This document shows positions 50,476 to 55,631 of a stretch of 64,000 nt of DNA, piece by piece. The stretch is taken from assembly GCA_963822445.1 (NCBI GenBank), contig CAWGHO010000003.1, positions 416,001 through 480,000 on the forward strand, written 5' to 3'. Every line of letters starts with the position of its first letter. Within the stretch, counting starts at the first letter, position 1. This stretch comes from an uncultured Acidobacteriota bacterium (GTDB lineage: Bacteria; Acidobacteriota; Thermoanaerobaculia; Gp7-AA8). The position numbers and the translations under genes were made by a program. The notes below the pieces were generated by a model. It was not told where the DNA came from and did no database searches. It saw only the letters and a program-made list of their open reading frames with translations.

Positions 50476-52841
<2,366 letters not shown>

Positions 52842-52842
<1 letters not shown>

Positions 52843-53168
52843 TGCTCGCAAAGACTCCTGATCCGCCCTATTACGCCGTGATCTTCACGTCGCTGCGCAC
52901 GCCGGTCGCGGAGGGTTACGACGACATGTCCGCGAAGATGGTGGAGATGGCCGCGCAGCAGCCCGGCTTCCTCGGCGTGGAAAGCGCTCGCGGCGAAGAT
53001 GGCCTGGGCATCACCGTTTCGTACTGGGAGAGCGAAGAGGCCATTGCCAACTGGCGCGCCAACGCCGAGCATCGCGTCGCGCAGTCGCAGGGTCGCGAGC
53101 AGTGGTACACCGAGTTCGTGACACGCGTGGCCAAGGTCGAGCGCGCGCGGACGTTCGCCGCGGGCTGA
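52842..53168 (+). CDS. Antibiotic biosynthesis monooxygenase (ABM) family protein
   Basis: PPYYAVIFTS, QPGFLGVESAR, GITVSYW, EHRVAQ..GREQWY. Confidence 0.88.
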
Positions 53169-53181
53169 GGGGAAACGACCA

Positions 53182-53300
53182 GGGGCCTCCGGCGGGCCGG
53201 CACGGCCGGCAGCGCTGATGTTGGCGTAAACGCGACCCGCGCTGGCTACCGCGAGCTCGGCAGAAGGCACAATCAACGCTGCCGGCCGTGCCGGCCCGCC
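53182..53300. repeat. REP-like 33-bp inverted repeat whose right arm is interrupted by the IS (remainder at 54842-54850)
   Basis: 53182-53214 is the exact reverse complement of 53277-53300 joined to 54842-54850. Confidence 0.9.
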
Positions 53301-53560
53301 TATAGCTTGTCCGACCGTCTCTCCGCTTCTCCCTCAGCCTTCACAGAAATACCCGTTGCGTGGCGATCAGGAGAACCGAGTTCAGACGGCGCGATACTAA
53401 GAAGAAGGGTTCGTCCCGCTACGAATTCCGCCCGTGTTCGGATCGACGAATCCCTCCGGACTTTCGAGCGGGACGAAGTGCTTTGGCCCGAAACGCATTC
53501 TCAGATGCTGTCGGAGCACGACTCGACTATAGGCCTTGCGCGCGGCCAAAGCCAACCCGA
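53301..53560 (+). ncRNA. Putative IS110 bridge RNA in the non-coding left end
   Basis: Two stem-enclosed loops (53410-53477, 53480-53552) containing matches to the target and donor junctions. Confidence 0.8.
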
Positions 53561-53572
53561 AGGGAGGGTGTG

Positions 53573-54817
53573 ATGAGCGAGTTCGAGTTTGGGGCGTTGG
53601 TGGGACTGGATTGGGGTGACACATCGCACGAGGTGGCTCTTTGGGACGAGCAACAGCAGACGTGCACGAACGAGCGCATCGAGCACACGCCTGCGGCTCT
53701 GCGCGCATGGATCGAAGGCTCGGATGAAACGCCTCACGATACCGGGCTGCACTGCGTGGGTTGATCGGATACAACGTGACGAACGGATAGCCGCTGAGCG
53801 CGTCGAAGACCGCGCCGCGGGACTGCTCGATGGCCACGGCGATCGGTGCCCCGCCGAAGCGCGCCTGCAGCGCTTTCGAAAGACGATCCGACCGACGCGG
53901 CGTCCTTGCTCGACCTGCTCCGTAAGCACCGCAACGAGCTGCGCCCGTTCATCGCCGACGACGCTTCTACGCGTCTGCTGCGGCTTCTGACCGAGGATCG
54001 GCGGGAGCTCGTCGATCAGAGGACGCAACACGTCCAACGCATGACCGATCGGCTCAAGACGTACTACCCGCAGGCGCTCCGGTGGGCCGGCGCGTTGATT
54101 ACGGCGCAGGCCTGTGACTTCCTCGAACGCTGGCCGACGCTCGAGGCCATCCAAAGGGCTCGGCCGTCCGCGATACGGAGGTTCTATGCGGGTCATCATC
54201 ACGCGGCCGCGTGGATCGACCAGAAGCTCGCCGAGATCCGTTCAGAGGTCGCGTTCCACGACGATCAGGTCACCACTGACGCTGCCGTGCTGCTGATCGG
54301 AAGCGAGGTTGCGCAGATCCGGGCCCTCAACGCGAGCATCGCCACGTACGACCAGAAGATCTCGGCGGCGTTCGCCGCCCACCAGGACGCGTCGATCTTC
54401 GCGAGCTTCCCTGGCGCCGGCCAACAGCTCGCGCCGCGGCTCGCCGCCGCCTTCGGGACCGATCGCAAGCGCTTCGGCAGCGCCGTCAACGTCGCCACCC
54501 GAAGCGGCATCGCCCCGGTTCTCCGCCGGAGCGGCAAAACGGCGGTCGTGCACATGCGCTGGGCCTGTCCGAAGTTCCTGCGTCAGACGTTCCATGAGTA
54601 CGCCCGCGTGTCGATCGGTCAGTCCGAATGGGCTCGAGCCTTCTACAAGCAGCAACGCGCGCGCGGACACAGCCACCACGAGGCTATCCGCACGCTCGCT
54701 TACCGCTGGATCCGCGTCCTTTACGCCTGCTGGAACAATCGCACCGTCTACGACGAAGCTCTCTATCTGCGGCAGCTCGCCACGCGAGGCTCAACCCTCG
54801 CCACAGCTGCTGCCTGA
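53573..54817 (+). pseudogene. IS110 transposase/recombinase disrupted by an internal inversion (53717-53873)
   Basis: GLDWG, KDDPTDA, SFPGAG and SGIAPV..SGK on +; AIEQSRG..INP on -; re-inversion gives an uninterrupted 414-aa ORF. Confidence 0.9.
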
Positions 54818-54863
54818 CTTGACAGGAAGGCTCAGATGTCCGGAGGCCCCACGGTCGTTCTCT

Positions 54864-55631
54864 CTAGCCCCGCACCCGCTGACCGCCCGTGTACACGTTG
54901 AAGCGCCCGTCGCGCACGAATCCGAGGAGCGTGAGGTTGAATTCGCTCGCGAGCTCGATCGCCAGCGAGGACGGTGCACCGACCGCGGCCAGGACCGCGA
55001 TGCGCGCGACCAGCGCCTTCTGCACGATCTCGAAACTGGTCCGGCCGCTGACGACCATCACCCGATCGGCGATGCTCGCGCCTTCGCGGAAAAACGAGCC
55101 GATCACTTTGTCGACGGCGTTGTGCCGGCCGATGTCCTCACGAATGCGGACGAGCTCACCGGTTGTCGTGAAGATCCCGGCGGCGTGAATCGCACCGGTG
55201 GCGTCGAATGCCTTCTGTGCGGCGCGGAGTGTTTCGGGCAGCGACGAGATGATGGCGGGGGAGACCCGCGCGTTCGATTCGATTGGCGTGAGGTGCACGC
55301 GCAACGCGTCGATCGAGACCTTGCCGCACACACCGCACGACGACGTCGAATAGAAATGGCGTTGCAGGCGCTGCAGATCGAGTTTTTCACGGGCCTCTAC
55401 GCGCACGATGTTCGATGAGCCCCAGTGACGGATCGACACGATTTCCGTGGCTGCTCTGAGAATCGATTCGGTGAACAGGAACCCCGCGGCCAGGTCGAAG
55501 TCCTCGCCGGGCGTTCGCAGGGTTACCGAGACGGGCTTCTCGCCGACACGGATCTCCAGCGGTTCCTCGACGGCGACGATGTCCTCGGCTTCGGTGGGGA
55601 CGCCTGCTTCGTATCGGGTGATGCGCGTCAT
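54864..55631 (-). CDS. fdhD: Formate dehydrogenase accessory sulfurtransferase FdhD
   Basis: EEPLEI, SSCGVCGK, EDIGRHNAVDK, SGRTSFE, APSSLA. Confidence 0.95.
   Translation of the reverse strand: MTRITRYEAGVPTEAEDIVAVEEPLEIRVGEKPVSVTLRTPGEDFDLAAGFLFTESILRAATEIVSIRHWGSSNIVRVEAREKLDLQRLQRHFYSTSSCGVCGKVSIDALRVHLTPIESNARVSPAIISSLPETLRAAQKAFDATGAIHAAGIFTTTGELVRIREDIGRHNAVDKVIGSFFREGASIADRVMVVSGRTSFEIVQKALVARIAVLAAVGAPSSLAIELASEFNLTLLGFVRDGRFNVYTGGQRVRG

Follow-up and report, generated by a model that had tools for sequence, protein, structure and literature searches.

The window, a 64,000-nucleotide stretch of contig CAWGHO010000003.1 (positions 416,001 to 480,000 of the forward strand; assembly GCA_963822445.1) from an uncultured Acidobacteriota bacterium of soil, carries on its plus strand a 1541-bp insertion sequence (IS) of the IS110 family at 53301-54841, which begins TATAGCTTGTCC and finishes CTCAGATGTCC. 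Its limits were defined by alignment of ten copies from the same genome with differing flanks. The recombinase gene of this copy, at 53573-54817, is in three parts. The 5' part (53573-53717, plus strand) encodes residues 1-48 and the first base of codon 49 and includes a GLDWGD motif with D13. The 155-bp interior (53718-53872) is inverted onto the minus strand and encodes residues 49-100, including an AIE motif with the likely catalytic E64, and the 3' part (53873-54817, plus strand) encodes residues 101-414 and the stop, with D105, D108, a coiled-coil region and Transposase_20. This arrangement is probably the product of a real, recent and one-off micro-inversion that has disabled one of ten copies of the element, most likely through an inter-strand template switch.

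The plus-strand frame that opens with the ATG at 53573 reads MSEF...RAWIE, encounters three TGA stops within the flipped stretch and then continues in frame at 53873 with LSKDDPTDA. Translation of the minus strand of 53717-53873 yields ALQARFGGAPIAVAIEQSRG...REAFHPS, corresponding to residues 49-100. Intact copies of the element have an open frame of 414 aa (for example, L002:1201-2442). The original prediction, of a clean inversion within an IS110 recombinase gene whose reversal restores a 414-aa reading frame, is thus borne out by the translations and by the nine sister copies described below.

The inversion deprives the RuvC-like DEDD domain of residues 49-100, among them E64, a likely metal ligand. 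In an intact paralogue, PF01548 (DEDD_Tnp_IS110) matches residues 10-166 (E = 1.6e-28) and PF02371 (Transposase_20) matches residues 274-359; the protein reaches 143.2 bits with the NCBIfam model NF033542 ('IS110 family RNA-guided transposase'), barely over its cut-off of 140. In the window copy the DEDD domain is split, with profile positions 1-43 and 92-155 on the plus strand and the middle on the minus strand. Two remnant open reading frames (ORFs) result, one of 63 aa (53573-53761) that matches positions 1-43 of the Pfam DEDD_Tnp_IS110 profile and one of 323 aa (53846-54817) that carries the remaining Pfam matches. Alignment by phmmer to the recombinases of IS621 and ISCro4 (PDB 8wt6 and 9t56) places D105 and D108 opposite the D..D pair of IS621, and S320-G321 opposite its catalytic Ser-Gly (PDB 8wt6); residue numbers and the role of the catalytic serine in IS621 are as given in PMC11208158. 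Of these sites the alignment includes D105/D108 and Ser-Gly, but not E64. D13 and E64 are likely DEDD residues by motif and spacing, the 51 residues between them comparing with 49 for D11-E60 of IS621 (PMC11208158). The earlier suggestion that the AIE motif holds the second DEDD residue is therefore plausible on its spacing, while the phmmer alignment stops short of it. The window gene is best regarded as an IS110-family recombinase pseudogene, and the locus 53573-54817 should be annotated as one such pseudogene rather than as two genes.

The orientation of the stretch was compared with that in the other copies of the IS, a check named in the original prediction. BLAST of the 6.0-Mb genome (3 contigs, here C1, C2 and C3; 94.7% complete) identified nine sister full copies, and all nine have the stretch in the opposite orientation and are uninverted. 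The 155 bp at 53718-53872 are the exact reverse complement of the sister-copy stretch, with identical flanks; this interior is letter-identical, as the reverse complement, in eight of the nine, and the ninth (C2:44501-44661) has a single mismatch within a 161-bp match. Because AAG at 53715-53717 and CTT at 53873-53875 are reverse complements of each other, inversion sizes of 155, 157, 159 or 161 bp are equivalent descriptions, and the 157 bp originally proposed is one of these. The 40-mers across the left and right junctions of the window allele are each found once in the genome. Moreover, in a self-comparison of the whole genome (4364 high-scoring segment pairs) the window inversion is the sole in-place inversion among repeat pairs, and it is therefore not part of a systematic pattern in the assembly or the organism.

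Relatives of the element have the order of the sister copies. The uninverted order is present in two congeneric species (G020, 84-90% identity; G009, 77-84%), and the nearest relatives of the IS are in metagenome-assembled genomes of Thermoanaerobaculia. Roughly 13 close relatives (L026-L028 and L098-L107) have 82-89% protein identity. We examined 152 related loci, of which 72 came from genomes of species representatives and 80 from metagenome contigs, scoring inversion as a minus-strand match to residues ~48-101; the window copy served as positive control and was detected. Normal order across the region was found in 145 of the 152, with 25-96% identity inside the stretch and a stop in one locus, and the remaining 7 do not cover the site in one piece. 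The inverted form was found in 0/152 of these loci from public genomes and metagenomes. The uninverted order is the ancestral one. Since short-read assemblies would hide minority orientations, the absence of inverted loci argues against a common fixed polymorphism and not against rare switching. A degenerate pattern for the left junction, written to fit either orientation, gave 0 matches in metagenome_contigs and 0 in genome_contigs, searches from which records of the genome itself were possibly excluded.

Three soil-metagenome runs share 0.10, 0.06 and 0.05 of sampled words with the window, as contigs. One contig of X2 joins 53717 to 53843 on opposite strands, as expected for a related element in normal orientation. 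Run X1 contains near-identical pieces of the IS together with the flank of another copy. One X1 contig matches the right end of the IS (54652-54848) with 2 differences and continues into the flank of C2:1260175-1261164, and a near-identical strain is therefore present at low depth in the X1 sample.

The inversion looks recent because the coding parts of the window copy have 0 private substitutions in the ten-copy comparison. The private changes of this copy number four only, all at 53314-53349, and 53403-53542 shows no difference from the majority. Seven further substitutions at 53359-53399 are common only to the window copy and the divergent copy C3:120304-122012. Outside its first 100 nt the window copy is of the majority type, and hence it is a mosaic that arose perhaps through gene conversion. 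As a separate matter, one C at window position 53556, upstream of the start codon, is absent from C1:1171697-1173392 and C3:1462775-1464467; the missing C makes the upstream open frame shorter (427 versus 503 aa) and leaves the ATG-initiated gene untouched.

These comparisons bear on whether the organism in fact carries the normal orientation, the flip having come from one aberrant read or from an assembler error. The assembly is in three contigs, is 94.7% complete and was judged at contig level, the flipped form was seen nowhere else (0 in the pattern scans, 0/152 related loci), and an artefact would account for the lack of private substitutions no less well than a recent event does. An error of this kind would, however, have to place two precise junctions on one and the same 3-bp inverted microhomology without losing a base. 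The flipped stretch is a letter-perfect reverse complement, an unlikely outcome of polishing against uninverted reads, and no similar inversion occurs among the other repeat pairs of the assembly. Assemblers normally make no inversions of less than 200 bp inside a 1.5-kb repeat that has been resolved ten times. We regard an assembly or consensus artefact as unlikely.

Both breakpoints coincide with short inverted homology in sequence able to fold back on itself. The left microhomology, AAG, occupies 53715-53717, and in six other copies, which are those with a middle BLAST match across 53715-53875, the BLAST pieces have these 3 bases in common. The right microhomology, CTT (53873-53875), lies inside a perfect 10-bp palindrome, CTTTCGAAAG, at 53873-53882; the AAG/CTT pair and the palindrome are both as originally described. 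The inverted match can be extended to TCGAAG on the left and CTT-T-CGA on the right, and a gapped inverted match spans 53712-53879 at 98.8%. In intact copies the left breakpoint falls within the 5' arm of a hairpin, CGAAGCGC / GCGCTTCG, which has an 8-bp stem and a 7-nt loop in the centroid DNA fold of an intact copy. A near-equivalent hairpin is re-formed at the right junction of the window sequence after the flip. The right site reads CTATCG instead of CTTTCG in three paralogues. The exchange was conservative, an exact replacement by the reverse complement with no gain or loss and 3 bp of microhomology at both junctions, and the AAG/CTT pair and the flanking quasi-palindrome survive it.

An established model (PMC5453318, citing Ripley 1982 for bacteria) explains how inter-strand template switching inverts a spacer flanked by short inverted repeats, and such a switch most likely produced the window allele. 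During replication, a nascent strand ending ...TCGAAG would leave its template at the hairpin-prone site and its last three bases would re-pair with the CTT ~155 bp downstream. The stretch would then be copied backwards, and because the nascent strand would return through the same AAG/CTT pair, no base would be gained or lost. Hairpin-prone DNA at both switch points would help such a switch. The window allele resembles template-switch mutations (Ripley; the four-point model of Loytynoja and Goldman, PMC5453318) in its exact reverse-complement replacement without net gain or loss, in its short inverted homology at both switch points and in its hairpin-prone breakpoints. It differs from them in that the arms are very short (3 bp perfect, 6/7 with one bulge), the 155-bp stretch is long for a local switch and no imperfect repeat has been converted to a perfect one. 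Of the options put forward originally, one-off inactivation fits best, given that one of ten copies within the genome and none of the 152 related loci are flipped, that the coding parts carry no private substitutions and that the breakpoints are capable of forming hairpins.

Several observations weigh against a template switch, or against the reality of the event. Inverted microhomology of at least 3 bp accompanies 7.2% of the possible 100-219 bp inversions of the intact gene, such that the 3 bp seen here are marginally above chance and suggestive at most. The arms involved in a classical template switch are usually longer and quasi-palindromic. A 211-nt region of the intact copy is not better folded than its shuffles (z = +1.37). 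Among the contig pieces listed from the three soil runs, none crosses either junction of the inverted form. The inversion is known from assembled sequence. Finally, the genome has four Ku homologues, so end joining is available as an alternative route.

By this other route to a one-off inactivation, double-strand breaks at the hairpin and palindrome sites would release a fragment that is re-ligated backwards, through end joining of the Ku/LigD type or mediated by microhomology. Besides the four Ku-domain genes, the location of both breakpoints in hairpin- or palindrome-forming and potentially cleavable sequence accords with this, as does the 3-bp microhomology at both joins. The DNA would nevertheless have to break twice at once, at points 155 bp apart, and to be rejoined twice exactly to the base, and end joining is usually imprecise. 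The sequence by itself does not separate end joining from a template switch. We consider end joining quite improbable. The Ku-domain genes are at C1:381393, C1:1345819, C1:1346618 and C2:1399168, two of them adjacent, an unusually rich end-joining complement.

Whether the element's own recombination system could have inverted the stretch depends on how that system is organized. The element is an ordinary IS110-family member with a CC core and a REP-like (repetitive extragenic palindromic-like) target. The 2-bp CC ambiguity is present at both IS junctions in 10/10 copies, all ten copies are inserted at one position of the REP-like repeat, and the flanks align through this repeat in nine of them. 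In the window, the left and central part of the palindromic repeat (~135 bp) lies at 53165-53300 and ends ...GGCCCGCC; the target copy of the CC core, at 53299-53300, is the last CC of the repeat's left part. The outer right arm of the interrupted repeat, at 54842-54862 (GGAGGCCCCACGGTCGTTC...), corresponds in reverse complement to the left end of the repeat and also follows the IS in other copies. The genome has 41 occurrences of the uninterrupted target 12-mer GCCCG-CC-GGAGG, compared with ~8 expected by composition, and 40 of the 41 fall within this repeat. Solo REP-like repeats matched by BLAST number some two dozen, each matching in both orientations (for example, C1:245868-246012, C2:329358-329515 and C3:680585-680740).

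The left-end non-coding region (53301-53572, plus strand) is presumed to contain a bridge RNA, an assignment made by guide complementarity only. The bridge RNA of IS621 has loops complementary to target and donor (PMC11208160). Exact-match scans against the rebuilt junctions identified CCUCCGG at 53453-53459, antisense to the core and right target, and CUAUAGG at 53527-53533, antisense to the core and right donor. Both antisense matches lie at the expected places. The left donor is matched in sense by CUCAGAUG at 53500-53507, and the left-guide matches are imperfect at 5-8 nt. Apart from these imperfect left guides, the layout is the one known from the bridge RNA of IS621 (PMC11208160). No Rfam family matched 53100-55000 at E <= 1, and the fold of the left-end RNA is not more stable than shuffles (z = -1.18). 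Like IS621 (PMC11208160, PMC11208158), the element combines a DEDD RuvC-like domain with a Tnp domain that carries Ser-Gly, and its non-coding left end has 7-nt stretches antisense to core plus right target and to core plus right donor. Also in common are the core of 2 bp and the use of a single fixed insertion site within a REP-like repeat. The element differs from IS621 in that its core is CC where that of IS621 is CT, its protein has 414 aa compared with 326 aa and is only weakly similar (E = 3e-4 to PDB 8wt6), its left-donor-like 8-mer lies 3 nt off the core, and the window copy is broken by the inversion.

A conservative, reciprocal exchange is the hallmark of site-specific recombination, and off-target action at cryptic sites within the gene, whether by the IS110 recombinase and its bridge RNA or by some other recombinase, could have produced it. 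Bridge recombinases are able to invert DNA flanked by two sites in opposite orientation (PMC11208160), 'half-match' off-target events are reported (10.64898/2026.08.31.748434), and GGAUCGA and CUUUCGA of the non-coding region recur at the two breakpoints. The last observation (7-mers GGATCGA and CTTTCGA) is not significant, however, since 18% of position pairs with this spacing in the gene have comparable matches at both positions. The core of the element is CC, whereas the crossover lies in AAG/CTT without CC; a second IS110-type element, present in 3 copies, likewise has CC at its ends. The flanks of the breakpoints are unlike the target or donor half-sites, and the genome has one resolvase-domain gene, on another contig. 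Bridge-RNA-guided self-inversion was rejected because the crossover has no CC core, its flanks resemble neither target nor donor and the 7-mers are at chance level. On these grounds, and with the resolvase gene on another contig, a recombinase-mediated inversion is very unlikely.

The same breakpoint anatomy bears on the reversible off-switch raised in the original prediction, which would make the stretch a programmed intragenic inverton that toggles this copy of the recombinase. The flip is exactly in frame and reversible in principle, since AAG/CTT and the quasi-palindrome persist, and intragenic invertons are known in other bacteria (10.1101/2023.03.11.532203). Like the invertons described there, the window inversion is wholly inside coding sequence, where such events recode or truncate the product. 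Unlike them, it lacks sizeable inverted repeats and a nearby invertase, and neither the sister copies nor the relatives show a second orientation. Its inverted repeats are perfect over 3 bp only, compared with 11 positions for an inverton repeat in 10.1101/2023.03.11.532203. The sole resolvase-domain match in the genome is on C2, with none near the window (tyrosine recombinases were not searched). Furthermore, 9/9 sister copies with the same or near-same sites are unflipped, as are the related loci (0/152 flipped), and in three sister copies CTA replaces CTT at the right site without visible consequence. Sizeable inverted repeats, an invertase close by and a second orientation elsewhere are all needed for a programmed switch, and we judge an inverton of this kind very unlikely. 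The event is no programmed inverton but one more example of a type of mutation already known.

A flip that recurs and reverts independently of any invertase, through the TCGAAG and CTT-T-CGA flanks with the hairpin on the left and the palindrome on the right, is scarcely more than conceivable. If it did occur, copies would toggle their recombinase at a measurable rate, yielding non-autonomous copies that supply bridge RNA only, and the transposition load would be tuned without a dedicated invertase. Were both orientations to be present in reads, the locus would exemplify a transposase switched without an invertase, which would be of genuine interest.

A one-off template switch, the explanation we favour, is of little importance on its own. 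It provides a clean natural bacterial example of a micro-inversion bounded by microhomology, with nine sister copies as controls. It also illustrates one route to a non-autonomous RNA-guided IS110 copy that keeps its ends and bridge-RNA region. The IS ends and the guide region of the presumed bridge RNA are unchanged in the window copy, which is presumably now non-autonomous and could still be moved by the recombinase of the nine intact copies.

The IS and its target repeat are intergenic, between a gene for an ABM-domain monooxygenase-like protein (52617-53168, plus strand) and an FdhD/NarQ gene (54864-55631, minus strand), and no resistance or virulence genes are adjacent to the IS. Elsewhere in the genome, C1:940350-941438 (loci L011 and L012) contains a head-to-head pair of 3' fragments of the IS, one of 702 bp with 100% identity to the reference copy and one of 388 bp with 95%, and is bordered on both sides by the repeat's outer arm in inverted orientation. 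This looks like two insertions in both arms of one palindromic repeat, the centre of which was then deleted. The second IS110-type element has three identical copies of ~1.47 kb, at C1:330246-330683, C3:254433-254870 and C3:745535-745972, with ends CCAGATGAG... and ...GGAAGCCGCC and a CC ambiguity. A distant singleton DEDD_Tnp_IS110 gene is located at C1:96099-96509.

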